64,000 nucleotides of DNA, from assembly GCA_000091205.1 (NCBI GenBank), contig AP006497.2; one strand, given 5' to 3'. A model generated the notes under the pieces. That model searched no databases. It was not told where the DNA came from and worked only from the letters and a program-made list of their open reading frames with translations. Numbering within the stretch: the stretch's first letter is position 1; every line of letters begins with the position of its first letter. Both the position numbers and the translations under genes were made by a program. Source of the stretch: Cyanidioschyzon merolae (lineage: Eukaryota). This document shows positions 10,111 through 38,629 of the stretch, piece after piece.

Positions 10111-11574
10111 TTTTGCCCGTGAACGAGGAACATTATACGATCTTCGCGAATGCTTTCTCGAACTTTTCGTATGCTTCAGAATTGGCCGCTGCGATGGGCT
10201 CTTTCGTCTTCTCGTTTACTTGGCGGGATGCCATGGATCTAGTAGCTACACTCCAGACCTCTTTCATTCCTGGGGATTCAGCATCGCTGGGTGAACGGTT
10301 GCACTGAAGCTTTCCTTTTCTATGCGCGTGTATCCACTATTCCCTGTGTTACTTTTCGTCGTCTTCGTCGTGAGTGGCGCTCACGGACTGTTGCGCGCCT
10401 TGCCGCTCCCTTTTGCGCACGAACAGAAGAGCAACACAGTATTTCAATGCTGGTGAAGGTAGAGAGCGACGTATTCAAGAACGGTGTCACAGATGCAAAC
10501 GACGCTTCTTTTGGTCCATTCCCGCAAAACCTTCGTTTGACAACAACGAAGACGCCATCGACTGCCTTTAATCGTGAACGATAGGTTTCCACGAATAGCA
10601 ATTGAAGGGAAATCGCAGCTGCGTCGTCATGACCCGCTTTTAAGGGATGTTATGCAACGTGCCCTGACAGCAGTGCAGAAGAATGTCGAAAGCAGAAGCC
10701 TTACGGTGCTTCCACGATGGATGAGGCGTTGAAGGATCCAGTCCGTGTGGCAGTTTGTACGGGATCGCGCGATAGAATCGCCGCTACGACTCGGGTTGTC
10801 GTCATTCTCGCTCGTCCCTTATTGACGAACAGCTGTTGCTACTCTTTGAGCACACATGTGAAGGTCTTCCATTTTCCCAAATGCTCTGCATCGAATGAGA
10901 CGAGCATCTTTTCATCCTCGATTAGGCGTTCGCACTTCGTTAGGAAATCGATCGTGTTCTATTCAGCGCTCCACAGTCTCGCATTGAAGGGTGCTTTTAG
11001 TTTCGATCATTCGTACCTCTTCAATCCCGTTCATATCAACGGCACGGAATATTCACGATCTAGGCTTCTTTGACAGACTTTCTTAGAGGATTTATGGAGA
11101 GGACCGGATTGACGAGGAGACACTCTTTTGTAGAAAGAGTTCGATAAGTTCTGTTTCTGGTGCTCGACGTTCAGAATAGGGAAGAAGAGAACGGTGGTTT
11201 ATCCATCTTATGACAATAAAACGACTGAATTGAAATAGTCCCACTGTTTTATTCGCCAGTGTGCACTGACTGCATCAAGTCTCTCCGCGAAGTCTCTCCA
11301 GTGCGCGAGAGACATTCCTTTCTACTGAATGCCAGGGAGAAAGACCAACAAAAACAAATCATGTATTCTGGCGCAAGTATTAAAGCATTCACCAGTCTAG
11401 GCATGACGCGGTTACATGCCCTGTAGGCGACAACGGCGGCTGCACTCCGTGTGCCGCAATCCAGTCGATGTGCCTCGCGACGTCTTTTCGAAGCGCCAGA
11501 CGGAAAGCGCATCGTTCCATGCGCATGTGCAGTACTCAAGGCAAATGTAGCTCTCCAGAGGGACCAAAATTCTT

Positions 11575-12669
11575 CTAGACATGTTCACGGCAGACTCGCG
11601 ATGATGCATTCGCAAAGGTCTCCGGATACGCTCGAGCTAGACGACACAAGACCGACGCTGCGCCAAGGTTTGCCCGTAGAAACGCTCGATCCACATCATG
11701 CTCGCCCTCGACTACACCATACAGATCTGCCTGCCAATCCTCTACGCAACGTCCTGCAAGAACCGCCTCCTCTGTGCTAATCCTTCCCTGCTGTATGTTA
11801 AGGCCGATGATTGCCGACTTGCTCAAGCATGCTATAGAATGAAGCGCGACTAAGGACCATAGGTCAAGTTGATCAAGATACTCTTGCATCCTTTGTAAAG
11901 CGAAATCACTTTGAATACCCGCAGTCACGAGCTCCGCGGTGACCTTAATCGGAACGCCGAGCACCTGCGAAGCGTTCTCACGTAAAGGACGCCATAGCCG
12001 TTCCTGTCTCGCGAGCAAACTTGCATGAGCGTGTTCCAGAAAACAAAGTGAATCGGCGCCAAAATGCTCCAAAATCTCTCGTACGTACAGGGCTCGGCAA
12101 GAGTCATCCACAGACAGACTCTTTGCCAGCAGCCGTGTCAGCGGCATTAATGCGGGACGTAAACGCTCGGACTGCCGATCCCATTCATAGAGCAGTGCAA
12201 GGGCCAATGGGAGCGTTGGAGCCAATAACGGCTGTTGTGGACTCAAGCATAAGGTTTTGCCGTCCACCTTCAGGCAGTATACGTGCTCCGCAGGTCTTCC
12301 GATTTCTGATGAAATCAACGCAGCAACTTCAACTTTCTTCCAAAAACGCGGCGGTCCCACTCCTGACCAGTTCGTTCGCAGCGTCCGCTCAACGTTGAGC
12401 CCGCGGGTATCCGAAGCAATCTGCTGGAGCAGTTGAGGGCGCTGCTCCTGTCCAGTTTGCTGCTTAACAGAGTCGTGCACATTTTTCGTTGAAAAGCTGA
12501 TCGCTGGCGTGTACACAGACAAGGTCGCGCGAGCGCTACCGGTTTTTGTGCAACTTGTGTGGCTCGAAAGGAGCCAATCGTCGCCAAGACGTGTTCCTAG
12601 CAAACAGTGGAACCTAACGGGCACCACGTGCTGTTTCAGCCCTTTCAGACAGCCCCGAATACGATTCAT
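11575..12669 (-). CDS. ATP12: ATP synthase mitochondrial F1 complex assembly factor 2 (ATP12/ATPAF2)
   Basis: RFWKKVEVAAL...LLYEWDRQSERLRPALMPLTRLLAKSL...LDLWSLVALHSIACLSKSAIIG is colinear with the ATP12 family (RFYQNVSI...AVATEWDSQ...LTLGLIDLRLTVEQAVL). A presequence-like N-terminus is present. Confidence 0.7.
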   Translation of the reverse strand: MNRIRGCLKGLKQHVVPVRFHCLLGTRLGDDWLLSSHTSCTKTGSARATLSVYTPAISFSTKNVHDSVKQQTGQEQRPQLLQQIASDTRGLNVERTLRTNWSGVGPPRFWKKVEVAALISSEIGRPAEHVYCLKVDGKTLCLSPQQPLLAPTLPLALALLYEWDRQSERLRPALMPLTRLLAKSLSVDDSCRALYVREILEHFGADSLCFLEHAHASLLARQERLWRPLRENASQVLGVPIKVTAELVTAGIQSDFALQRMQEYLDQLDLWSLVALHSIACLSKSAIIGLNIQQGRISTEEAVLAGRCVEDWQADLYGVVEGEHDVDRAFLRANLGAASVLCRLARAYPETFANASSRVCREHV

Positions 12670-20156: not shown

Positions 20157-21446
20157 CTAGCCACGCATTGCCATGGAGCCTTGGTAAATTTTCAAAAGGT
20201 CCTCAACATCCCTGGGGCTTCCGCAAATGAACGGCTCTCGCTGATGGACATCTCGCGGAACAATATCCAGAATTCTTTGCTTTCCCGTGGTCGCTATACC
20301 GCCGGCCTGCTCCATGAGATACGCCATAGGTGCGCACTCGTACAGAAGACGCAACTTGCCGTTCGGGTTCTTCTTATCACCAGGGTATCCAAAAACGCCG
20401 CCGTAAATCAGCGTGCGATGGACATCGCCAACGAGAGATCCTATGTAGCGCGAAGAATAGCCCTTTTTCTTCATCGATCGAATATATTCTTGAAGAACAG
20501 GGTCCCAGTTATCCGAGTTTGCCTCGTTGAAGGAGTAGATCTTGCCACGCTCCGGAACACGAACATCTGGGTGCGTCAAAACAAACTCGCCAATCGCTGG
20601 GTCCAGAGAAAAACCCTGCACTCCGTGACCAATAGACAGCATGAAAATCACCGATGAGGAGTAGAGAATGTAGCCCGCTGCCACCAGATTCGCACCCGGT
20701 TGCAGCGTCTGCACGAGGCACTGCATTTGTCGCTGACTTATATCCGCGTCCTCGGGTCCCGTCAGACAGTGCTCGCCGCTGCGCATTACACCAAAAATCG
20801 TACCCGTGGCGATCGCTGCATCCAAATTCGAGGATCCGTCCAACGGGTCAAACGCAGCAATAAAGTCACCTGTATACGCCTCTTCCATGAGCGACACTGG
20901 CTCGTTTTCCTCTTCCGAAGCCAAGACACCTAGTTTCCCTGTTGAGCGTAGCGCGTTCTTGAGCACCTCGTTCGTCAACACGTCCAGCTTTTTCTGCTCC
21001 TCGCCCTGCACGTTGACCGAGCCCTGAAGGCCAGTCAAGTTGCTCACGCCCGCTCGGGCGACCAGTGAGGCAATCTGCTTGCCAGCTGTCGCTGTGGCTG
21101 TTATCAAAGGAGCCAAATCAGCGGTCTCTGGATGCTGCCTCTCCTGTTGGAGAACCCACTGTCCGAGTGTCATGGGTAGGTCTAAAGCTGCGCGCAGTCT
21201 CACTGCACCAAAGCGACGTTGATGCCTTGTTTCCAGCGGCAAGACCGACACCGATACCCTTCCCCATATGTTTGTTGAGCGCAGCTTAGGAGCCCCAAGG
21301 CTAACGAAAGCGTGCGGTGCTTGCTTCGCCATGAATATCGTTGCTGGCTCCTTGAGGTCAGCAAGGAGATGAGTGCTGCAAACGTCGGGCGTCGCAGCGG
21401 CGGGCACGGCCGCAATCGTCGACGGCGGCTCGATCGGCTGCCGCAT
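20157..21446 (-). CDS. FBP: fructose-1,6-bisphosphatase, chloroplast/redox-regulated type
   Basis: Full-length FBPase: KKLDVLTNEVL, AAFDPLDGSSNLD, GKLRLLYECAPMAYLMEQAGG. It carries the plastid-type regulatory insertion GEHCLTGPEDADISQRQMQCLVQTLQPG with two Cys, where cytosolic enzymes have a short loop. A roughly 90-aa Ser/Ala/Arg-rich N-terminal extension resembles a transit peptide. Confidence 0.9.
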   Translation of the reverse strand: MRQPIEPPSTIAAVPAAATPDVCSTHLLADLKEPATIFMAKQAPHAFVSLGAPKLRSTNIWGRVSVSVLPLETRHQRRFGAVRLRAALDLPMTLGQWVLQQERQHPETADLAPLITATATAGKQIASLVARAGVSNLTGLQGSVNVQGEEQKKLDVLTNEVLKNALRSTGKLGVLASEEENEPVSLMEEAYTGDFIAAFDPLDGSSNLDAAIATGTIFGVMRSGEHCLTGPEDADISQRQMQCLVQTLQPGANLVAAGYILYSSSVIFMLSIGHGVQGFSLDPAIGEFVLTHPDVRVPERGKIYSFNEANSDNWDPVLQEYIRSMKKKGYSSRYIGSLVGDVHRTLIYGGVFGYPGDKKNPNGKLRLLYECAPMAYLMEQAGGIATTGKQRILDIVPRDVHQREPFICGSPRDVEDLLKIYQGSMAMRG

Positions 21447-21499
21447 CTGCGATTCGCCCCGTGCAGCGAACTAGCTTCTGTTCTTTCGAGGGGGTACAC

Positions 21500-22010
21500 T
21501 ACGACCCATCGGCAGATGCCTCCTCCAGGCCTTTTTCGACCGGCTCCTGCTATTCAGTTCATCTGCTCCGTGTAGACATCGATATTGAGAGGGTGCCTTA
21601 CAAAGGTAGAGGGCGTCAGCTCCGCGGGTCTCGTCTTCAGCACCGCACATCTGCTGATGTTGATAGCGGCGTTGAAGTCTCGGTTCAAGAATTCCAAGCG
21701 ATTATAGCATCTGGTGGAACTGATCAACGTAGGGGTTGCAAGAACTCGTGCCCTATGTGCCATTTGCTGCTCTTTCAGCTCTCTGAGGTTTTCAATCACC
21801 GAAGCGCTCCGCTGGATTTTGTCTTTCTCGACCTCCTGAAGTGTGCATCCCAGTTCATACCTTATTTTAAAATGAAAGCACTTGTTCATTTCCTTAGGTA
21901 AGGGCATTCCCGGGGCGAGAGGGACTTGCAGAAGAAAGACGAAACGTGCTCCAGCGTTACCGTGTGCTGAGCGCTTCAGCGATTCGCCCAGTGGAACGAT
22001 CGTTACGCCT
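21500..22010 (-). mobile_element. truncated TnpB/Fanzor-like remnant (copy B): C-terminal RuvC-III region plus conserved 3' flank
   Basis: ORF 21554..21907 gives ...NRLEFLNRDFNAAINISRCAVLKTRPAELTPSTFVRHPLNIDVYTEQMN. The upstream open frame adds ...KCFHFKIRYELGCTLQEVEKDKIQRS. The block is about 50% identical to the C-terminus of the long copy at 33946..35655. The shared 3' flank CCTTTTTCGACCGGCTCCTGC sits at 21527-21548. Confidence 0.6.
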
Positions 22011-23624
22011 CACGAACGGAAAGACTCCTTCAATGGCGTCGAGCCACGGTGTGTACGTAGTAATGAAATGCAACGCTACCTCGATAGAATTGGAAAAAGC
22101 TCGAACGCAAGGGGGATTTGTGAAACGCCACGTTGCCTATTGGAAGAACGTCTCCAGACATCAGTGTAAAAGCCTTCGATGGTTCGACGAAGTGTTTCGT
22201 GCTGTTGTATGAGCCTTCTGTACGAGCGAAATTTAATCCGCCACACATATCCACTGCTGCTAGAATAGAGAAGTTCGTCGTTCTCATCGAGTTCGATCGT
22301 ACGCATGGCAGGCTCCCTTTCCGCGAATACCCATATAGGCCCCGTTCTGTTCGCCCGAAGCAAGTCCCATCGACTGGAAAACAAACCGACGTCACTGTGC
22401 CTCGTATCGATGGTGACTTTCCAGGAACGCTTTCGTTGCGATTTCGGTGGATGATGGGTGTGAATAAACTAGGACTTTTTTTGTTACTGGATCGCAATGG
22501 TTCCAGGACCAGACGAAGAGGCGATTGAGAAACAGAGACGCTGCTCGCGGCTACTATTGTCGCACATGCATTCCGAACGGGATCAACGGGTCGTTTTTCT
22601 ATCATTGATAACAGTGAGTGTTTGAGAATATCGATTTTGGCGCGGAGTGTGTATCATTCGTTCTTTCAGGGCTCCTCAAAGATCAGAGCCCTGTGGTATG
22701 ACTGACCTGAACGGGGAATGCAGTACTCTTCGCACTGCTCTGGAAGGAATCCATCCGACATGCAAGTTGTCTACCATCTATAAGATACATTGCATACTGA
22801 TGCCGATCTCATGCTATAAACCGCAGCGAGGACCGTACAAAATAGCGTTGAAAGACTTTGAGTCCGATCATATTCCGTTTCCAGAGTCGTAGGAAGATAA
22901 ATACGGTGTCCATTGCTGTGCATTGCACCGAGTATCTCGCTTCCATGAAACGAATCAGAGTGAGCTGCAACTCCTACGTGTCGCCTGCTTGCTTGCTTGC
23001 TTGTTTGCGAGCCAATACGTATGTGCCACAGTGGAATGGTGCACCTTCGTGGCCACCTATGCATCGTATGACGTTCCGCAGCTAACGTGTATGCATCGCT
23101 GCAGACGCTTCGCGATGTCGAGCGACGGGATCGTACGGTGAAGGGATACCGGAGCATCCAGGGATGCAGCTCGCCCTCTCTACGACATATGGACGCGTTT
23201 CACGCACGCTGGAGGTCAACGTGCTTGAGTGACACTGTTTCTGGTTGATCCCTGCAGGCAGCGCAGCAGGAGGCTCAGCGTTTCTAGATCTAAACCAGGT
23301 CGAGTGCGAGCGGCACGATTAGAGAGCAGACCCTCCGTGGTGTGCGATACTCGCGTTCCGACGACTTGTGCTGCATAACGCTCCTCGAATACGTTCTCAG
23401 GTTACATCTTTAGTTTCGGTCCAGGTTGTACCAGCATTCGCCAAACTGTTGAAACTCGAAACTGATCTTTCGAAATCGCTGCGCTCGCCCGCATCGAGTC
23501 ACTTTCAGCCGGCCGAAACTTCACGACGGAGACCTAGTATTCTTCAGGGAGCCTCAATGCACCCACATTGTCATACGTTATTCACTTAACTGGCTAGAGT
23601 GACTATGGAAGAGCTGGTTCTGCA

Positions 23625-29760: not shown

Positions 29761-30759
29761 ATGAACCTTACGCTTCTGAAACGCATCATCTATACCCTAG
29801 TTTACAGACCGCTTGGTTTTCTCTATCTTTTCTTTGGTGTGTTTTACGGGCGGTTTGTGCTTCCGAAACAACCTGCGTTGACGTTACTGCGGCCGTACGT
29901 TGACGACCGGACGGTCGTCGTCGTGACCGGCTGCAACGTTGGCATCGGCTATGAGGTCGCGCTTGCGCTTTCAAAGGCTGGTGCGACAGTGTTTATTTGC
30001 TGTCGCACGGAAGAAAAATGTAGTGAGACTATCAGGCGGATCAAGCAGCAAGGGGGGCGCGGGCAGCTCAAGCCTATCAAACTTGAGCTGTCCTCGTTCG
30101 CATCCGTCCGCGCTGCTGCCGATGCGATTAACGCGCAAACAGCCTACATTGATTTTCTTGTGTTAAACTCGGGTGTGATGAACATTCCGAAGCTGGAATT
30201 TTCGGCCGACGGCTACGAGATGCACTTTGCGGTGAACCACCTCGGACACTACCTCCTAACCAGACGCCTGGTTGCTAAAGTGCGAAAAGGCATCGTCGTT
30301 GTTAGCTCTGATGGACATATCATGGGCGCTACTGATGCGATTGATGATATAAACTGGGATCGACGTGGACGGGAGAACTATGACGGCATGGTCGCGTATG
30401 CGGACACGAAAATGGCGAATGTTTTGTTTGCTGCTGAATGCAATCGGCGGTACCCTTCGATCCGCACTGTTGCGGTACACCCCGGCGCAGTACTGACCGA
30501 GCTCATTCGATATTCCGTGAAACCGGAGGCACAGACGCGTCTTCGCCAAATTCTCAAGTATATTTTTCGAACACCTGCGGAGGGAGCACTCGTCGTGGTG
30601 GCAGCGCTTGTGGCTACCGCCGTGCCTTGCGCCGGAAAGCGTGCGCCTCTTTTCTACCGCGACGGCCGGCCGAGCTGGGCAGTTGCGGAAAACGATGTTG
30701 CTGCAGCGCAGCATCTCTGGGACGAGAGCGAGCGCATCGTCCGCAACTACCTCACCTAG
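29761..30759 (+). CDS. short-chain dehydrogenase/reductase (retinol-dehydrogenase/WWOX-like SDR) with N-terminal membrane anchor
   Basis: VVVTGCNVGIGYEVALAL is the TGxxxGIG cofactor motif. NSGVM, VVSSDGH and the YADTKMANVLFAAE active-site YxxxK follow, then VAVHPGAVLTEL. A hydrophobic N-terminal helix is present. Confidence 0.85.
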   Translation: MNLTLLKRIIYTLVYRPLGFLYLFFGVFYGRFVLPKQPALTLLRPYVDDRTVVVVTGCNVGIGYEVALALSKAGATVFICCRTEEKCSETIRRIKQQGGRGQLKPIKLELSSFASVRAAADAINAQTAYIDFLVLNSGVMNIPKLEFSADGYEMHFAVNHLGHYLLTRRLVAKVRKGIVVVSSDGHIMGATDAIDDINWDRRGRENYDGMVAYADTKMANVLFAAECNRRYPSIRTVAVHPGAVLTELIRYSVKPEAQTRLRQILKYIFRTPAEGALVVVAALVATAVPCAGKRAPLFYRDGRPSWAVAENDVAAAQHLWDESERIVRNYLT

Positions 30760-31102: not shown

Positions 31103-31633
31103 TTAAAAGAGGTTGCACAGACCGAAAACGCATCCCCAAGCGAGGCCCATGCCAGCACCCCAACCCATGCCCCGAACACATGCGTTGCAAATGCCCTGAG
31201 AGACCTCTGATCGAGAATGCGACGGTGGTACCTGGCCAGTCGCCGTTTGATCGTCGTACTGGTATCGTGTGGGCTGCGCGGCCTCGCCTGCCCTGTTGCC
31301 CGGATAAATGGGTGCACCAGTTGGTCGGTAGACTGGAGGCAGAGGCGCGTACGGTGTGCTTTCTGTATAGTAGTAGTAAGCCCCAGGTGGCGGCTGAACG
31401 CCGGGCTTTCCGTCAAACTTTGCTGGCTCAGGCTCGGCGGCTTCTTCAGCATAAGCACCTTTAACCTCCTTTTGGGCCGAGAAACTCTGGGCCGGTTGCA
31501 CCGCAAAGTCCGGGCGTGTTACAGGAGCGCTCGTTGTATCTGGAGCGCTCCCAGCAGCAACCGCAGCATAGCTTGTCGCCGGCCTGTCGGGGTGGTAGTA
31601 GTAGTATGACATAGACCTATTTGAGTCTGACAC
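31103..31633 (-). CDS. Tyr/Pro-rich small protein with C-terminal Gly/Cys-rich hydrophobic tail (CYSTM-like, tentative)
   Basis: 176-aa ORF. The N-terminus is rich in Y, P and Q (MSYYYYHPD..., PPPGAYYYY, PLPPVYRPTGAPIYPG). The C-terminus GMGWGAGMGLAWGCVFGLCNLF resembles the CYSTM module GCLAALCCCCLLDxCF. Overlapping antisense ORFs lower the certainty. Confidence 0.35.
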   Translation of the reverse strand: MSDSNRSMSYYYYHPDRPATSYAAVAAGSAPDTTSAPVTRPDFAVQPAQSFSAQKEVKGAYAEEAAEPEPAKFDGKPGVQPPPGAYYYYTESTPYAPLPPVYRPTGAPIYPGNRAGEAAQPTRYQYDDQTATGQVPPSHSRSEVSQGICNACVRGMGWGAGMGLAWGCVFGLCNLF

Positions 31634-32106
31634 GGTTGAAAATATCTAGCTCTTTCTCGTGCACGCTAGTTTGAGCGCTGTGTGGCGTCTGGAACTGTTG
31701 CGCCCAGCTCAAGGAAACGCACAAGTGTTACAGTCGGATTCGTTGGCACAGTTCGACTATAAGAAGCCCAGCTGTAGGCGGAGGTTTCCTTCGCTGAGGC
31801 GTTCACGCACTGAACGAGTGTCAACGTTCAGCGCGCAAACTTTTCCTAGGGCTATTTTTTCTCAAACACGCGAAGCTTCGATGGCGCCAGAATGTCGACG
31901 CTAGCCAACCGCGTATCTGTATCGTCAACGTGCTTGTTCCGCTTACGTCTTCGCGTTGAAAGAGCATTCGACATAAAACGAAGATTCGACGACGGAATTC
32001 GGGAGCGTCCGCGGGAGACACGCGGTCGGGCGTCGTGTCCAATTTGGGCCGTGCCTCACGCGCAACGTGTCCGGCGGATACAGACATGCGCGCGCACGCA
32101 CGCACG

Positions 32107-32122
32107 CGCCGGCCGGCGCGCC
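32107..32122. repeat. 16-bp perfect GC palindrome (CGCGCCGGCCGGCGCG) inside an (ACGC)n-like GC tract
   Basis: Read directly. It lies at the left boundary of the lower-GC block that holds the TnpB/Fanzor-like copies. Confidence 0.6.
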
Positions 32123-32425
32123 TGCGAGCTAACTACGTCATCGTCATGCACCGCAACTGGATTCCATAGACAGGCGCGTGTCATCTCATGCTCTTTCGAG
32201 GTGTAAGGCAGACGCGTTCGATTGCGTCTATTTAAAGTAATATAAAATCCAAGGTATGGAGATGAAAGTCGGGGATCCTGGCGGACCGTCATCGCCGGGC
32301 GCCCGGAAAAACGAAAAAGTCCTCTTCTCGCCTGTCATCGAGCGAAGAAGCGCAAGTGACGTAGATGAAGAAGAGTGGAGATAGTCAAGAAAAGGTGCTT
32401 GATCCACGAGACGATGACGAGACTG

Positions 32426-32700
32426 TAGTGGCACAGAGGGCACGAGTTCAATGAGCCCCTGCGATCATGGGTTCAACCACCGGCAATGTACGCGAAGAAT
32501 TTCGTGAACCGTGACCCCAACGCCGCCATGAATATAACACGACGTGTGGTGCTGGACACGAGTCCCGCGGAGCTGAGGCACTCTAGTTTTGTGAGGAAAC
32601 CGCTCAAGGTCGAATTGTGCAAGAAGAAGTAGAAACCAGTAGCAGGTGACCGGTCAAAAAAAGGCGGGGCGGTGTCGGCGAGTGGGTATGCGTACCCCGC
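32426..32700 (+). mobile_element. truncated TnpB/Fanzor-like remnant (copy C): RuvC-III region plus conserved 3' flank
   Basis: Plus-strand frame gives ...AMYAKNFVNRDPNAAMNITRRVVLDTSPAELRHSSFVRKPLKVELCKKK* (stop near 32630). This is colinear with copies A and B. The 3' flank GCAGGTGACCGGTCAAAAAAAGGCGG at 32641-32670 matches the flanks of A and B. Confidence 0.55.
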
Positions 32701-33945
32701 TCTACGGTCGTGAGCCATTTTTCGTCTTGCTGAGTATATATATGGACGCTAGTGGAGGCGATGACTTAAACTACGCATAAGCGACATTCCGCGGGGATGT
32801 TCCCGAGGGCCTTGTCCTGATGTGTTACCCGGTATCGCGCGCTCCCTGACCAATGTTTCAGTTTGCCGGGCAGTAGGTGAACCAGCCAGCTATCCAGCGG
32901 GTTGTTTAGGTACAGGCATATTACATTCCCTTAAATTCACGAATCTTTTTAAGGAATCCTCTTGTTTCATACTACTACTTCCGTGCTTTTCGCGCTTAAA
33001 CTGAAATGCGCACAGAATACTCCGTCATGGATACCGATTGCGCAGCGCCTGCTTCTCTTCCACATGCGTGTGTCTCGGACCTAAAAAGTGCAGTATTTTG
33101 CGGTTATCCTGGAGTGTCGCCCTATCCACCGCAGAAGTAAACTCGTCCGGTGCCTGCTTCTTCCGATGCGCTGCGGCTGTACTGAACAGCAACGCCCGCT
33201 GAGACGCGGTCGTTGTGGAGTATTCACGTCGCAACCCAGCCAAGCGCAGCTTCCATACAAGGAAAGAAAGCTCTAGCGTCTCCTTTAAGTGTTGCCGACG
33301 TTGCGTTGGGGAACACCACTGGCCAGTTCGACCTTGGTGATGCGCCCGCCCATCTTCATGATCCGCTGCTGCTCGCTGTACCAGGAAGTGAACGGCACCA
33401 TCTTCGTTGTCGCAACGTTCTGCAACTCGCGACCGCTGTCAACACGTGACTGACTGGGCAGCACATACGAGACCTTAAACATGCGGCGATCATTCGCAAC
33501 GCCAGATGACTTGATGCGCCGCGGTCCGAGGTTCCCCGCGCTGCTCCCGTTCATATCGTACCCTGTCATGCGGACGCTCCAGGACGAGTGTGCCAAGCAC
33601 CGCTGCGACTCTGCAGACTTTGCAGAAGCCTTAACACCTGTTCCAAAGAAACTGGTCTGAACGAACATGGTCAACGAACGAAGAAACACAGAGAACAAAG
33701 ATATCGCGAAGTTGTGAGTCAAAAGACGGTGGTGCAGCGAGCGCAGCCGGCGAGCTCGCTTGCGTATTCTCGCCACGTTCTCGCCGGCCGTGTACAGTAG
33801 TGGCGATCGGCGCGCCTTGGACAAAACGTCTCCAACTGATGTGCAGACGCCTCCCCGTCTTTTTGGACCGGCCACCAACTACTTCTTCCAATTTTATCTC
33901 ATATAGTTCGACCTTAGAAGGTTGTCCAAAAAAGTACCTTCTTGT

Positions 33946-35655
33946 TCACTCTGGAGGTCTCGTCTCCAGCACCGCACATCTCCTGATATTGATGGCAGCG
34001 TTAAAGTCTCGGTTCGCAAACTCCATACGTTTCTTACCATCGTTGGTTGTACTTACTAATGCAAGTAGCCCTCGAAGTTTCGCCCTCCTTTCCATTTGCT
34101 CTTCCGTCAGCGGTCCGTACTTTTTTGCATCCTCAGGGCTCCGCTGGCACTTTTCCATCTCCACTCTCTGGAGCGTGCGCCCCCGCTCATGGTGTGAATG
34201 CGATGTTCGAAACTCATCTATCGGTATTGTAACAAAACGCCGTGCGCACTCCTTATACGTTCTCGTCGTTGGAGCTGGTGCAGTCCCTTTTTGGGTCTTC
34301 CATCGCCCTGCTCCGTACGCTACTACGAGCCTCTGACTTTCATCCTCCTTCAGGGCACTCAACTGATTGAAAAAATTCGCGAACGCCCGCTGCTTCCCAC
34401 AATACAAGTTCATTCGAAGACGAGCCCACCGGGGCTTGGTATACTCCTCCCACAGCGCATCCCAATGGGCAACACGAACTTCCATGAATTTCCGAAAAGC
34501 TTTAAAGTCCGCTCCTCGACTCATCACCTCGCTCAAAGCTTCCAGGTGCTCGTTCATTCCTGAATTTCAAGTCTCGATTTTGTTCCTTGCATTCATGCTT
34601 CCCGATTCTCGATAATATCTCGCTCTCGAGAACCTCAACAGACGCATGTCTTTCTGACATAAGTTACCGTCAGGACCATCTTCCGCACGCTTCGGTGCTG
34701 CGATGGTGATGATATTTGTGTTGCCGGGGTCCGCGCCAATGACAAAGTCGTTATCCTGCACTTTCCGCGTCTCAGGATCTGCTTCTTTCTCATCTTCATC
34801 CTTCGTCACCTCAACGACATGCACGTTATCCTGCACCTGCTGCATCGCAGGATCCTCCTTTTCGTTTTCTTCATCCTTCGCCGCGTCAACGACAAGGTCG
34901 TTATTCTCTACCTCCTGCGTCGCGGGATCCGCCTCCTCCTTTTCCTCATGGTTCGCCGAGGGCGGGACTGGTCGATCTCTCTTCAACCGCCGATAGTGTA
35001 CACACAAGGCTACTCCATCGGTTTCGATTAACCCAGTGGACAACTTTTGCTTGCTCACTCTCAGACGTTTGGAGCTGAAGATATTCTTCCAGGACATCTC
35101 CCGGTTTTCACCGGAAAACTCCTCCCTGCTAACATCGAACTCGGGACTGATCTCCTTCATGATGCCATGAGGGATTCTGGAGTCGATAGTCACGAAATGT
35201 GACTTGATATTGGACATTGGAACGACGTTGAAGCGCTTCTCCTTTAGGACAGCCTTCCTTTCCTCCCACTCTAAATTTTCCCTATTCAGCCTCATCTCTG
35301 CTTTGCGTTCGAGCTCTCGGTCGAGAAATACGAAATATCGCAGGAAAAGGCGATAGTATCTTTCCTTATCTTTTTTCAACTCTGATATCTTGTCTGTTGG
35401 ATTCGCCATCCCCAAGATTGCACGGTGCGCTTGTAGAACCGCGCGGATTACAGAAGCCTCATTCGTGCTCTCGTTTGACCCCTTCTCTCCGGCGAATTCG
35501 ACCTCATCTTGATGCTTACGATCTTTCGTGATGCCATTCATAATCGCCCATTTTCCATTGCGCGATAGGCCCGGGTAGAGTGCAATCACGGCGCGTATCA
35601 TGAAACGTTCGAGGCTCGTTGTCAAATGGTTCTTCAGGTTCGTGAGGTACTTCAT
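33946..35655 (-). pseudogene. TnpB/Fanzor-like RuvC nuclease (OMEGA-family, eukaryotic Fanzor-type) gene, recently pseudogenised (copy A)
   Basis: ORFs 34567..35655 and 33946..34557 share one frame and are split by a single TGA. The first ORF contains the RuvC-I motif DFVIGADPGNTNIITIA. The second contains a TnpB-like zinc-finger region with Cys replaced (FVTIPIDEFRTSHSHHERG, compared with V.KVNPAYTSQTCSCCG) and the RuvC-III hallmark MEFANRDFNAAINIRRCAVLETRP. A second TGA sits where copies B and C have Leu. The same frame stays open upstream to about 36084 (ORF 35794..36084), interrupted by TAA and TGA. The putative RuvC-II Glu appears replaced (LVVAYGAGRW). Confidence 0.7.
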
Positions 35656-36989
35656 CGCTCCGCATGTGTAAATATCCCGGTGACTCTTGTACCGACGAAC
35701 CCGTAAGAGGGATGTTTTTCGTGGAAGGCATGCACTAGCTCATTTTTCCTCCGCGCTTCCTCTGTACCAAGCATCAGGTGATGAATAAAGGTCTTATCGA
35801 AAAACCCGTCCGGGAACCTCGACCGTTTCCATGTGCGTCACGTCGCGATACATCTCCCTCGCCAAATACATCAGTCCTGACGACGCCTTGACAATACTCT
35901 TGGAGTACGAGTCGACACGTTTTTTGATAGCGTCTCGCAACTTTTCGCTGTACGGATCCTTGATATATCCAAGAAGAAAGGTTTTCACCACCTTCTCGTC
36001 GTACAGCCGTCTTTCTTGCTGCCTTCGACGTAGGGCCTCCCCCTTTTGCTTCTTTTCCTCTTCCTTTTCTTCTGGAATGGGCACTGTTTTTTGTTTTTTC
36101 TCCAGCAGCCGGCGACCCTGGGCCTCCAGGATCGTGAACTTGCTTTTTCACAGCTTTCCTTGTTTTGTTTTTTTTTTGAAAAAGAACGCTCTTTGAACCC
36201 TTCTGTTATATACTGCAAAAAACACTAGACTAGACTTGTTTGAAGTTTGAAACAAAAACGAACTGAAAGACTGTACTTTGCTATGACCTCAACGGAAATC
36301 CAACTTTCTACAGCTGAACAACACGCTAGAGATCAGGATCGCGTTTCCGTTCAACGGAGGCATACGCGTCGTGTCTCATGCCTGCCTGATCTCCCAGTTG
36401 CGCTCACTGAGCGCGATGCGTGCACCGCGCGAGACGCCTCACCGATCAATAAAGGACACGTGTCCGACACCCTGCATTGGCACGTGCGTGTTCGCATCGC
36501 ACTGCAGCCAAAATAACGTATCGTAGATCGGAAACTCACGTAGAATGCACTCCTGCTATAGGCTATGTCGTTGGTGCCTATCGCAGTGCCGCCCTGAAGC
36601 ACAGTCGGTGTTGTGGCACGCTTGGATCTCCATAATGCCTCCAGAAGAAGCGTAGCTTTCGCAGCGGCTCACGCTTGTCTGGATGAGGTGTGCATCACAC
36701 TAGCCTTGAAGAGTTTCGTTAGTTTTATTGATCGTAACCAAAGTAGGCATATTAGTGTTCCCGAACACGGCTACAAGTTTATTCCCTATGCTTGTTATGC
36801 ATGCTGCACGGACGCTGCAGGGAGTATCTAATTTGAATTGTGCTTCTATCCTGCGTCATAGGCTGGTACTGATGACAGCTCAAGTCATTTCCATGCTGCT
36901 TTCGTTGTCTAAATTATGGTGCCTGCTTCGTCCTCCGGATCCGGTGATCTTGGCAGAGGCAGAGCACACTCGACGGGCCCTTTGCTATC

Positions 36990-37125
36990 GGTTTCAGCTT
37001 CTCCTTGTTCAACTCTGGGCTGGGAGGTTCCCCCATAAAGTTGGACCGCGTCAGCTCCGCCGATCGCGCCTCCACCACCATACATCATCTGACATTGATG
37101 GCGTTTTGTCTAAAACGCTCGTGAT
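36990..37125 (-). mobile_element. highly degenerate TnpB/Fanzor-like remnant (copy D), frameshifted
   Basis: Minus-strand frames give ...LYHERFRQNAINVR* and, at +1, CMVVEARSAELTRSNFMGEPPSPELNKEKLKP. Together these are colinear with NRDFNAAINISRCAVLKTRPAELTPSTFVRHPL in copies A to C. The antisense signature RSRLHHHTSSDIDGV is visible in ORF 36728..37156. Confidence 0.4.
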
Positions 37126-37497
37126 AGAGCTGAGGTCAAGAAGCGATCAATCTTGACCGACGCTATCAAACGAGCGGTAACAGAAGCTGAGGGCTGTAGC
37201 CGGCACCAGGTGCTCTGGTGCCTACATGCTGGCCGTGAATCGTGCGTGACGAAGCCGCACAGCATGCCACGGTTTCCTAGTACGTAAACCAAGCACGTAT
37301 TCGAAACGTTCGGGTTCAGTGTGATGACGAGTCGCCGCTGCGGCATTCTGGGAAAATCATCCGAGTGCGCTATGGTTTTTCGAATATCGAGCATCATCAC
37401 GAGTGTGGGTGCGCTTCACTGCACGAGTTGCAACGATCACCGAATCCACCATCATCCAAAAGTGACGAAAATTCACATGCGCACCGGCCTCGCACCT

Positions 37498-37877
37498 CTA
37501 GGTCAGGACGTGCCCACCAGCACGCAAACAAATTTCGTGCCCCGCTGTGCTTTCACCAAAAACGAAAGGAAACATGCGTTTCCTCGACCAGGGATAGAGG
37601 GTTCCGAATTCCTTCAGATACTGCCGATGTTTCGCCCGAACCCAGACCAGCATCTGCAGTGTGCCCACGAGCATACACAGGATGCCTGCGATTGTTCGCA
37701 TCATCGAGATCAATCCTACGCACGCCAGTACCTCAAATATGCAGTTCGGATACGACACGAACTCGAAAAGCAAGCCGAATGGGATCCGCCACCAGCGGCG
37801 ACCGCGAAACCCGATTGCAAACCGCTCCCGCAAGCCATTTGGGCAAACGAGTGGTGCAGCGCGCATGTTCATATAAT

Positions 37878-37916
<39 letters not shown>

Positions 37917-37935
37917 TGCAAATACCCCACTGCAT
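37498..37935 (-). CDS. possible fragment of an ICMT/PEMT-like membrane methyltransferase C-terminus (very tentative)
   Basis: WVRAKHRQYLKEFGTLYPWSRKRMFPFV resembles the EE.L...FG..Y..Y...V...IPF C-terminal motif of the isoprenylcysteine/phospholipid methyltransferase family. The poly-Leu stretch is just the antisense reading of the CAG repeat. The frame is not continuous with the upstream ORF. Confidence 0.2.
37880..37912. repeat. (CAG)11 trinucleotide repeat
   Basis: cagcagcag...cag read directly. It is read as poly-Gln, poly-Ala or poly-Leu in overlapping ORFs, and lies just upstream of the MPV17-like start. Confidence 0.85.
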
Positions 37936-38629
37936 CTGCGCAGTTCCTGGACCAGCACCGATGAGGCACGTGCGGGGCAGTCCAGCCGTGCAGGCTGTTG
38001 CTAACTTATACGATCGGTACCTTCGCAGCCTCCAGCGATACCCCGTAACTACAAAGTCGCTGACTGCTGCCTCGGTTGGTGCTGCAGGTGACGCGTTGGC
38101 GCAGTTGCTCGAACGTCGTCAGCGAACACCGACAGCTGAGCGATTGGGAGACCCTGGTCCACAGAAGCCGTTTAACTGGCGAAGGCTAGTGTTATTCGCA
38201 ACGTTCATGGGTGTCTTTAGCGCACCAGTTTCTCATTATTGGTACCTTTGGTTAAGCAAACGCTTTCCCGCAACCAATATGGTAGCGGTTAGCAAACGCG
38301 TTGCCTGTGATCAGTTGCTTATGGCGCCGACAATCATCCCGGCAACACTGTTTTTTCTCGAGTACGCCGGGCGAAAGTTTGTCGCTGGAGAGAATGGTGA
38401 CGGCCTGTTGCGACACGCCTTGCAGGTCGCAAGCGAGGAAACCGGTCGTACGCTGCTGGCGAACTGGACGATATGGCCTATAGCGCAAGTTGTGAACTTC
38501 CGCTTCGTCCGCAACGAGCTGCAGGTCCTGTTCGCAAATCTGGTCGGTGTGGGATGGAATACCTTTCTCAGCCTTGTCGCTGCCGAAAACCTGCAGAAAA
38601 GCCATAAAACATTGACGAAAGCTGATTGA
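37916..38629 (+). CDS. Mpv17/PMP22-family peroxisomal/mitochondrial inner-membrane protein
   Basis: LYDRYLRSLQRYPVTTKSLTAASVGAAGDALAQ...WRRLVLFATFMGVFSAPVSHYWYLWL...VSKRVACDQLLMAPTIIPATLFF...TIWPIAQVVNFRFVRNELQVLFANLVGVGWNTFLS matches the Mpv17/PMP22 family along its length. The likely start is the Met near 37961. Confidence 0.8.

Follow-up and report, generated by a model that had tools for sequence, protein, structure and literature searches.

Dead Fanzor1 copies of the CMe-1A family beside the APCC gene of Cyanidioschyzon merolae

Does the interval 32200-37150 of the window (the whole 64,000-nt stretch of Cyanidioschyzon merolae 10D nuclear DNA analyzed here) hold a single compound or nested transposon, possibly with a cargo gene, as a preliminary description had proposed from its low GC content and its TnpB/Fanzor-like pieces? 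The region is very probably not one compound element but a mosaic, ordinary genes of C. merolae chromosome 15 being interspersed with dead members of a single known transposon family. The locus proteins match C. merolae 10D BAM81595, BAM81596, and BAM81597 exactly. The pieces do lie in both orientations (copies A and D on the minus strand, copy C on the plus strand), and their tail-to-tail C/A geometry was correctly described, with the coding ends of C and A 1376 nt apart. The features are:

~21495..22300, minus: copy B, older Fanzor fragment, outside the 32200-37150 region
32105..32120, no strand: perfect 16-bp GC palindrome CGCGCCGGCCGGCGCG
32251..32689, plus: copy C, older Fanzor 3'-end fragment (inverted repeats I1 and I2 with copy A; tblastn)
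33285..33668, minus: host gene APCC (CMO250C, BAM81596; exact match to BAM81596.1; Pfam CpcD, 5.5e-10)
33669..34268, minus: published 600-bp "APCC promoter" fragment (from primer position)
33745..36970, minus: copy A, near-full-length decayed Fanzor1 element, long form, CMe-1A family (homology to at least 35 paralogous loci)
33745..33945, minus: 3' non-coding tail of copy A, with the terminal hairpin at its end (the omega-RNA position in characterized Fanzors)
33946..36147, minus: Fanzor1 pseudogene of copy A (three-frame translation against the 752-aa relative P0044 and P0049)
34737..34961, minus: three tandem 75-nt (25-codon) repeats within the copy A Fanzor ORF
36420..36970, minus: 5' non-coding module of the long form in copy A (common to L029, L030, L051, L060, L082, L087, and L097 only)
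36971..37110, minus: copy D, older Fanzor 3'-end fragment (RuvC-III coding end and part of the tail)
37101..37790, minus: degenerate duplicate from a very-long-chain enoyl-CoA reductase (Steroid_dh) gene, covering the C-terminal part and 3' flank

The 197-codon ORF between copies C and A (33285-33878, minus), which had been suggested as cargo, does exist, but only if the bacterial code is applied and TTG is accepted as the start; as annotated, the CDS has 127 codons, beginning with an ATG at 33668. It is the nuclear gene APCC, which encodes a plastid-targeted phycobilisome core linker containing a CpcD domain, and which has orthologues in Galdieria, Pyropia, and Gracilaria. As a separate observation, contig L011 carries a different sequence starting 32 nt ahead of the APCC ATG. 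Gene order in the sister species is the same (adh_short, a 176-aa gene, APCC, Mpv17); the gap between APCC and Mpv17 is 689 bp there vs. 4292 bp here, and it contains no Fanzor or reductase sequence. Because this species, without Fanzor DNA at the site, keeps APCC in conserved gene order, APCC is not cargo. It occupied its site before copies A, C, and D, and is not part of any transposon.

Copy A lies in the head-to-head intergenic region between APCC and a PMP22/Mpv17-like gene on C. merolae chromosome 15, and is about 3.2 kb long. On its 3' side, homology of 80-85% to at least 35 paralogous loci stops sharply at 33782, with the terminal hairpin extending past this point to 33745. On its 5' side, homology stops at 36969/36970 in at least six long-form copies, and at 36392-36421 in short-form copies of the family; long-form copies run 65-258 nt past the start of copy A, and at least 65-125 nt of the 5' terminus of copy A is missing. 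The 5' module is probably part of a TE-N2_CMe-like 635-bp 5' region of CMe-1A. Pairwise identity of family copies is 0.80-0.85 along the whole length, but collapses at the tandem repeats (34737-34961), because the number of repeat units differs between copies. There is no ORF other than Fanzor in copy A, and no HUH transposase (Rep/Hel or TnpA) within the element. Terminal inverted repeats and target-site duplications, for which a search had been suggested, were not found for copy A or the other pieces at the locus. Copy A is a non-autonomous single-gene element bounded by homology to its paralogues.

The CMe-1A family was already known in 2013: it was described as having about 150 copies of about 3 kb, about 80% identical to the consensus and without terminal inverted repeats, target-site duplications being undetermined (Bao and Jurka, 2013; PMC3627910). 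By host, size, copy divergence, and this published description, copy A is one of these ~150 copies. Copy A and the described family agree in genome, in length (about 3 kb), in having one Fanzor1 ORF, in the ~80% similarity of copies, in the lack of terminal inverted repeats and of detectable target-site duplication, in a separable 5' module, and in most copies being dead with a few intact; nothing essential differs. Family members were recovered here at 71 metagenome loci, with sharp 3' boundaries and 5' boundaries of two modes; among them, L022 alone retains an ORF of at least 700 aa.

The nuclease gene of copy A comprises ORFs at 33946-34557 and 34567-35655 (minus), with N-terminal pieces up to about 36147. 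It has no ATG, two frameshifts (near 35800 and 35700), and two in-frame TGA codons: one at 34567-34569, where the intact relative has a TGG Trp codon, and one at 33946-33948, where relatives have a Ser codon. With its nuclease gene broken, copy A cannot act here. The identical ORF pattern is found in 99%-identical strains from several metagenomes. The RuvC motifs GADPGN, IDEFRTS, and NRDFNAAINI are still legible, and are invariant across the family alignment; the acidic residues of this split, three-motif domain are D484, E656, and D725 in P0044 numbering.

A family profile (P0044, P0049, P0074-P0077) matches one solved structure only, the Spizellomyces Fanzor1 SpuFz1 (PDB 8GKH), with E=5.3e-12 over profile positions 251-651 (the RuvC half); a single-sequence phmmer search gave no similarity. 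SpuFz1 and the family share DP(G), DE(Y/F)xTS, and NRDxxxxxN motifs and an RPExxxR C-terminus; unlike SpuFz1, the C. merolae family lacks CxxC zinc-finger cysteines, and copy A is a pseudogene. Throughout the C. merolae family, other residues (TSHSHHE..., LLALVSTT) stand in place of the cysteines of the C-terminal zinc ribbon (TNB, CxxC...CxxC), and the PF07282 score is 13 bits, below the cut-off of 26.3; these cysteines are retained in the distant relatives P0076 and P0077. At the level of sequence, a Fanzor1 derivation of the pieces at this locus is supported.

Downstream of the coding region, a non-coding tail of about 200 nt is conserved among 40 distinct family copies. A terminal hairpin is present in every copy, with 10-19 bp (15 bp in L053) and a stem sequence that varies by copy (consensus type, L022, L053, and the window); in copy A, GCCGGCGAG (33788-33780) pairs with CTCGCCGGC (33754-33746). 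The last 62 nt of the copies have a mean MFE of -22.5 kcal/mol and a mean z of -2.0. The guide RNA of SpuFz1 derives from the right end of its transposon, near the stop codon (Saito et al., 2023; PMC10432273). The C. merolae tail may be an omega-RNA source by analogy only, since RNAalifold gives no consensus structure across it and its conservation is no better than that of the dead coding region; there is also no Rfam match to it. Intact family members probably encode a TnpB-like RuvC nuclease, which by analogy with characterized Fanzors would take its guide RNA from the conserved 3' tail.

The 3'-terminal hairpin, the absence of terminal repeats and duplications, and the variable 5' ends suggest that transposition might be end-specific and possibly single-stranded, with the enzyme supplied in trans. 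Bacterial IS200/IS605 TnpB elements and eukaryotic Helitrons likewise have no terminal inverted repeats or duplication, a 3' hairpin, and heterogeneous or truncated 5' ends. Unlike them, copy A has no TnpA or Rep/Hel, and Helitron termini (5'-TC and CTRR-3') are not apparent (the family consensus 3' end, ...CGAACGGCGTT, has no CTRR); the likeness to single-strand (HUH-type) transposons is one of resemblance only.

Copies C and D are 3' fragments of 140-440 nt, about 70% identical to each other and to copy A. A tblastn match of 60% over 25 aa lies in copy C at 32498-32572 (plus), and its DNA is 68-72% identical to copy B and to old-type fragments in L081 and L083. Copy D shares about 75% identity with positions 33949-33996 in copy A as well as with the 3' ends of further copies, and stops about 120 nt short of its own terminus. 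The preliminary description placed it about 0.9 kb upstream of A; its distance from the recognizable ORF of A is indeed about 0.85 kb, but it directly abuts copy A, because the intervening sequence is A's own 5' non-coding module. Copy D is the stump of an older element at the 5' end of copy A, and copy C is likewise an old stump, beyond APCC. Older 3' fragments also sit just upstream of the long-form copies L029, L060, L082, and L097; in L097, 358 nt more lie between the D-like fragment and the long-form Fanzor than at the D/A junction. A second insertion at one spot would give such a head-to-tail stack, D then A, and a deletion across the junction could have followed. Elsewhere in the window, about 50 nt separate the 3' end of copy B from the first ATG (21446) of a same-strand FBPase ORF downstream.

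The inverted orientation of copy C (plus) relative to A and D (minus), bracketing the 197-codon ORF, is what suggests a compound or nested transposon, whose arms would be C and either D or A. This reading is hardly credible: the ORF is a gene conserved across red algae, present between the same neighbors in a sister species without Fanzor at the locus, copy A carries a single gene, C and D are short fragments only ~70% alike, and there are no inverted repeats or duplications to represent preserved ends. The arrangement is like that of bacterial composite transposons in having inverted transposon-derived pieces on both sides of a gene, but it differs from them in its flanks, which are divergent 3' fragments of short length, and in the gene between them, which is ancestral at this site. 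A composite transposon was rejected on two counts: two complete flanking copies with usable outer ends are not present, and the enclosed APCC is found at the orthologous site. The earlier proposal of a mobile origin for copies A, C, and D nevertheless stands, as at least 35 paralogous copies exist elsewhere and none at the syntenic locus of the sister species. A cargo-like item of another kind, the reductase duplicate, lies mostly outside 32200-37150. Its parent gene adjoins CMD195C on chromosome 4 (the neighbor gene on contig L098 is BAM79210, CMD195C). Identity between the duplicate and L098 is 85.7% across 694 nt of DNA but just 65% for the protein, with a Pfam score of 59 bits vs. 105 in the parent; its relic ORF (37498-37935) has lost its stop codon. 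It ends within 10 nt of the start of copy D, and L097 has the same order of reductase 3' flank, D-like fragment, and long-form Fanzor 5' region, as would be expected if reductase fragment, D, and A formed a larger mobile unit, through transduction or capture by Fanzor of ~0.7 kb of the chromosome-4 gene. This seems quite unlikely: L097, the sole other instance found, is a 1.8-kb contig from a different metagenome and may represent the orthologue of this locus in a divergent lineage; the Fanzor part of L097 has 90% identity with L029, against just 82% with copy A; and the remaining long-form copies lack the reductase fragment.

Base composition was the other argument for a foreign island. GC content is 0.512 over 32200-37150, vs. 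a window mean of 0.553. The reported dip is real, but narrower and shallower than described: values of 0.46-0.50 are confined to ~34.0-37.0 kb, that is, to copy A (0.496) and its 5' module (0.504), while the 32.2-33.8 kb segment is at 0.52-0.57 and the neighboring genes at 0.545-0.57, not 0.58-0.62. Further 2-kb stretches in the window likewise drop to ~0.50. The low GC is the Fanzor family's own composition (mean 0.495, 43 loci), and because it is family-wide and the copies differ from one another by 15-20%, it marks an old repeat. Recent horizontal acquisition, to which the contrast between copy A and the window might point, is therefore extremely improbable; in addition, insertion and lesions alike are fixed among the 99%-identical strains, in all of those with an assembly spanning the site. 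The perfect 16-bp palindrome noted near the left boundary is present, 2 nt from its reported position, but has no link to any element end and is not above chance, as the window has three such palindromes vs. 1.4 expected, and at least one occurs in 77% of simulated sequences.

The mosaic of host genes and dead copies has a consequence for APCC itself. Primer APCC(-600)F (Table S1, PMC4549557) matches 34246-34268 (minus) exactly, 600 nt upstream of the ATG. Since the 3' end of copy A stops just 76 nt short of this ATG, the experimental promoter fragment is mostly Fanzor DNA: 81-87% of it is the 3' end of copy A (33745-34268, 524 nt, or 487 nt with the contiguous-homology end at 33782), leaving just 76-113 nt of non-element DNA. 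More generally, at 20 of 35 insertion sites a host start codon on the same strand follows the end of the copy within about 150 nt (p ~4e-13, for mechanical ORFs of at least 150 aa with first ATGs, and a single 64-kb window as null), and for some copies a same-strand host ORF begins 0-42 nt from the 3' hairpin. The family may favor insertion sites just ahead of start codons, in the orientation of the gene. It is conceivable, though we put it forward tentatively and as somewhat improbable, that the 3' end of copy A has been co-opted as a promoter or transcription start for APCC, and those of sister copies likewise for genes downstream. The proximity of element and ATG, here and across the family, fits this, as does the strong constitutive expression driven at ectopic sites by a fragment that is largely copy A; but conservation of the 3' tail does not exceed that of the dead coding region, insertion preference alone could produce the same layout, and a native core promoter of 76-113 nt could suffice. 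Co-option, if true, would explain the persistence of dead elements in the compact C. merolae genome.

Beyond the published description of CMe-1A (PMC3627910), the conserved 3'-terminal hairpin, the placement just upstream of same-strand start codons, and the overlap with the APCC promoter are added here. The combined proposal that CMe-1A elements are targeted to, or kept within, about 150 nt upstream of start codons in the orientation of the gene, and that their 3' ends supply a promoter or transcription start, is rather doubtful. If it holds, outward guide-RNA transcription possibly doubles as the promoter or start of the downstream gene; stacks of the D-then-A type would be a record of repeated insertions at one promoter-proximal site; and the standard C. 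merolae APCC promoter would be an exapted Fanzor tail.

The motifs GADPGN, IDEFRTS, and NRDFNAAINI, which lie within the minus-strand ORFs 33946-34557 and 34567-35655, mark copy A (33745-36970, minus strand) as a Fanzor gene, now a pseudogene. Its repaired translation matches P0044, a 752-residue relative with 73% identity, together with some 30 further fragments, all from the same metagenomes. Compared with P0044 and a second protein relative, P0049, it carries two in-frame stops and two frameshifts; the ORF also lacks a start codon, and the identical broken pattern is found in independent strains. These lesions, the older fragments, and the neighbouring host genes are placed as follows.

Features of the segment and its surroundings (window coordinates)
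About 21495-22300, minus strand: B, older Fanzor fragment, roughly 70-75% match to the copy A 3′ end
29761-30759: short-chain dehydrogenase gene, translation identical to BAM81595 of C. merolae 10D
About 32251-32689, plus strand: C, roughly 70-75% match to the copy A 3′ end
33285-33668, minus strand: APCC (CMO250C), translation identical to BAM81596 of C. merolae 10D
33946-33948, minus strand: copy A lesion, Ser codon to TGA (relative to P0044 and P0049)
34567-34569, minus strand: copy A lesion, TGG to TGA (relative to P0044 and P0049)
Near 35700 and near 35800, minus strand: copy A lesions, frameshifts (relative to P0044 and P0049)
36971-37110, minus strand: D, roughly 70-75% match to the copy A 3′ end
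37961-38629: PMP22/Mpv17-like gene, translation identical to BAM81597 of C. merolae 10D

A profile of the family finds a single PDB match, which covers the RuvC half of the Spizellomyces Fanzor1 structure 8GKH (E = 5e-12); a phmmer search of PDB with the intact relative finds nothing, so that the profile is required. Pfam gives only sub-threshold TNB matches to the copy A ORFs, and the zinc-finger cysteines are missing from the family. The ORF also holds three 75-nt tandem repeats (34737-34961, minus strand; 25 acidic residues each), in a number that differs among family members. By host, size, copy divergence, and published description, the family is the one described in C. merolae as CMe-1A (Bao and Jurka; PMC3627910) and catalogued in this genome in 2013. 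That description counts about 150 copies of about 3 kb that are about 80% identical to the consensus; it finds no terminal inverted repeats, leaves target-site duplications undetermined, and has the 5′ 635 bp in common with TE-N2_CMe.

The low-GC island proposed in the preliminary description for 32200-37150 exists, but it takes in less sequence and is less deep than stated there: values of 0.46-0.52 are confined to about 34.0-37.0 kb, while 32.2-33.8 kb is at 0.51-0.57. The dip is simply copy A (0.496) and its 5′ module (0.504). Neighbouring genes, put there at 58-62% GC, measure 0.545-0.57 against a window mean of 0.553, and the GC drops to about 0.50 in other stretches as well. Since low GC is family-wide (mean 0.495, range 0.478-0.514, 43 loci) and pairwise identity among copies holds evenly at 0.80-0.85 from one end of the element to the other, the dip marks an old repeat rather than a recent import; an ORF of at least 700 codons is kept at just one of the 43 loci. 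The perfect 16-bp palindrome noted near the left boundary is present (32105-32120), but is not above chance: a first-order model predicts 1.4 palindromes of this kind where the window contains three, and 77% of simulations have at least one.

To map the element's limits, copy A was compared first to three paralogous loci and afterwards to 71 metagenome loci. On the 3′ side homology stops sharply at 33782 (range 33775-33796). On the 5′ side the limit is bimodal, at 36392-36421 in the short form, whose 5′ ends may be underestimated, and at 36969 in at least six long-form copies. Other long-form copies share sequence for a further 65-258 nt, so copy A lacks its 5′ terminus. At the 3′ end, an alignment of 40 distinct ends shows most copies running about 40 nt past the homology limit into a terminal hairpin, which in copy A ends at 33745. 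Its consensus is CGTCGTTCGA-CTT-TCGAACGGCG, often lengthened to 17-19 bp; across the family the stem is 10-19 bp, and its sequence varies between copies with pairing retained (the stems of the window copy and of loci L053 and L022 differ from the consensus at the same position). The last 62 nt fold with a mean z-score of -2.0. RNAalifold predicts no pairs from the 40 3′ tails, and the hairpin is shown copy by copy; an Rfam search of 31.5-38 kb with E up to 1 returned just a chance isrG match. The accessible text of the 2013 description (PMC3627910) mentions no such hairpin. Neither terminal inverted repeats nor target-site duplications, which the preliminary description proposed to look for at the island's edges, were found at the ends of copy A.

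Pieces in both orientations were correctly described (A and D minus, C plus), and the question is whether they make up a compound transposon. D meets A at 36970/36971 and ends about 120 nt before its own terminus. The metagenome locus L097 has the same order with the two parts 358 nt further apart, so the window's arrangement is explained by a single deletion that spans a head-to-tail junction. Three other long-form loci (L029, L060, and L082) likewise carry an older 3′ fragment immediately before their 5′ ends. Where D starts, a reductase relic terminates (37101-37935, minus strand). Its 37101-37790 portion is 85.7% identical to the metagenome contig L098, where the adjoining gene is identical to CMD195C of chromosome 4; the parent was recognised by this neighbour, a homologue search with the fragment giving two matches only. 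The fragment duplicates, in degenerate form, the 3′ part of the enoyl-CoA reductase gene on chromosome 4 together with that gene's 3′ flank; it has 65% protein identity to the parent, a Steroid_dh score of 59 bits against 105, and a lost stop codon. It may, with low probability, have travelled with a Fanzor element: the only other place where this flank adjoins a Fanzor sequence is L097, whose Fanzor sequence resembles L029 more than copy A. Between the relic and the PMP22-like gene there is a CAG/CTG trinucleotide run (37838-37916), in which 10D and the metagenome strain contig L013 have unit counts one apart.

The suggested cargo, a 197-codon ORF, is a host gene. Its C-terminal half is a CpcD domain (Pfam, 5.5e-10), and read from the ATG at 33668 it is the annotated 127-residue BAM81596, called APCC (CMO250C) in the literature, with orthologues in Galdieria, Gracilaria, and Pyropia named allophycocyanin-associated core linker. 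No ORF besides Fanzor was found inside copy A. The sister species keeps the order RRM protein, Elf1, SnoaL, dehydrogenase, 176-residue gene, APCC (76% identical), and Mpv17, with APCC and Mpv17 head-to-head and 689 bp apart, against 4292 bp in the window. As its APCC locus has no Fanzor-like or reductase-like sequence by tblastn and tblastx, it supplies the orthologous locus lacking the island, and APCC is ancestral at the site, not cargo. Outside genes, sister-species DNA does not align with the window, and exact insertion points are therefore not mappable. The 176-residue gene corresponds to a Pro/Tyr-rich ORF (31103-31633, minus strand) conserved by tblastx at 11357-11947 of the sister-species contig L007; it may be a gene that the annotation misses, since the consecutive NCBI proteins BAM81595-BAM81597 do not include it.

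Hot-spring metagenome contigs, 99% identical, also cover the region. No empty-site allele was found among these strains, copy A being in every contig that crosses the site. Many of the contigs L001-L021 stop at 33971-34205, 34666, 35313-35419, or 37547-37670, within the repeat or next to it, which fits assemblies that break off at a multi-copy family. The preliminary observation is thus partly confirmed and its interpretation partly supported: the pieces are Fanzor-derived and mobile in origin, but do not form a compound transposon carrying the flagged ORF. As stated, the finding resolves to something ordinary, one copy and the debris of a family catalogued in 2013, beside a well-known host gene. 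What merits following up is where the family lies, and what APCC has upstream.

Placement was surveyed in distinct copies whose downstream flank spans 700 nt or more, recording the first ORF of at least 150 codons after the hairpin (loci L022-L096). Of the 35 sites, 26 have this ORF on the same strand and 7 have it on the opposite one; it is absent at 2. At 20 of the 35, the first ATG of a same-strand ORF lies -22 to +153 nt from the hairpin, against 8.5% for window intergenic positions (binomial p about 4e-13; the ORFs are mechanical rather than curated, and the null comes from one window). A Pfam scan of 27 ORFs on the same strand (26 distinct sites once L029 and L056 are merged) gave matches typical of housekeeping genes in 20, including FtsZ, phosphoglucomutase, SMC, an XPD-like helicase, CysRS, UBC, a DEAD-box helicase, PPR, and SPX; the chosen ATG is supported by the domains of several of them, which begin at residues 1-6. 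The strand bias follows from a preference for head-to-head intergenic regions, the 5′-side neighbour being divergent in 11 of 14 cases (61-1724 nt away); the non-trivial part of the pattern is the asymmetry in distance. The window fits: copy A ends 76 nt before APCC, and B about 50 nt before the first ATG (21446) of an FBPase ORF (20157-21446, minus strand).

At APCC, this placement puts the element inside a published promoter. The primer APCC(-600)F (PMC4549557) matches 34246-34268 (minus strand) exactly, 600 nt from the ATG, and falls within the dead RuvC coding region. The 600-bp promoter (33669-34268, minus strand) thus comprises 487-524 nt (81-87%) of the copy A 3′ end (the hairpin, the tail, and some of the RuvC coding region), the remaining 76-113 nt being other DNA. 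Across the family, the 3′ end shows no added conservation of the kind that would indicate selection as a promoter. In one contig (L011, nt 1-134), differing sequence replaces everything upstream of APCC position -32 (window 33700); it matches nothing in the window, and may be a chimeric assembly or a structural variant. The literature found by full-text search on Fanzor in Cyanidioschyzon consists of the 2013 description (PMC3627910) and a paper on a green alga that is unrelated; the accessible text of neither makes a link between the family and the APCC promoter.

The APCC promoter, widely used in C. merolae to express transgenes and selection markers, therefore consists for the most part of a repeat that has about 150 roughly 80% identical relatives in the genome, which bears on construct design, on off-target homologous recombination, and on explaining the promoter's strength. 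If the placement bias holds on curated annotation, it would give a handle on how a eukaryotic TnpB-type element, here of the unclassified family CMe-1A, chooses or keeps its sites.
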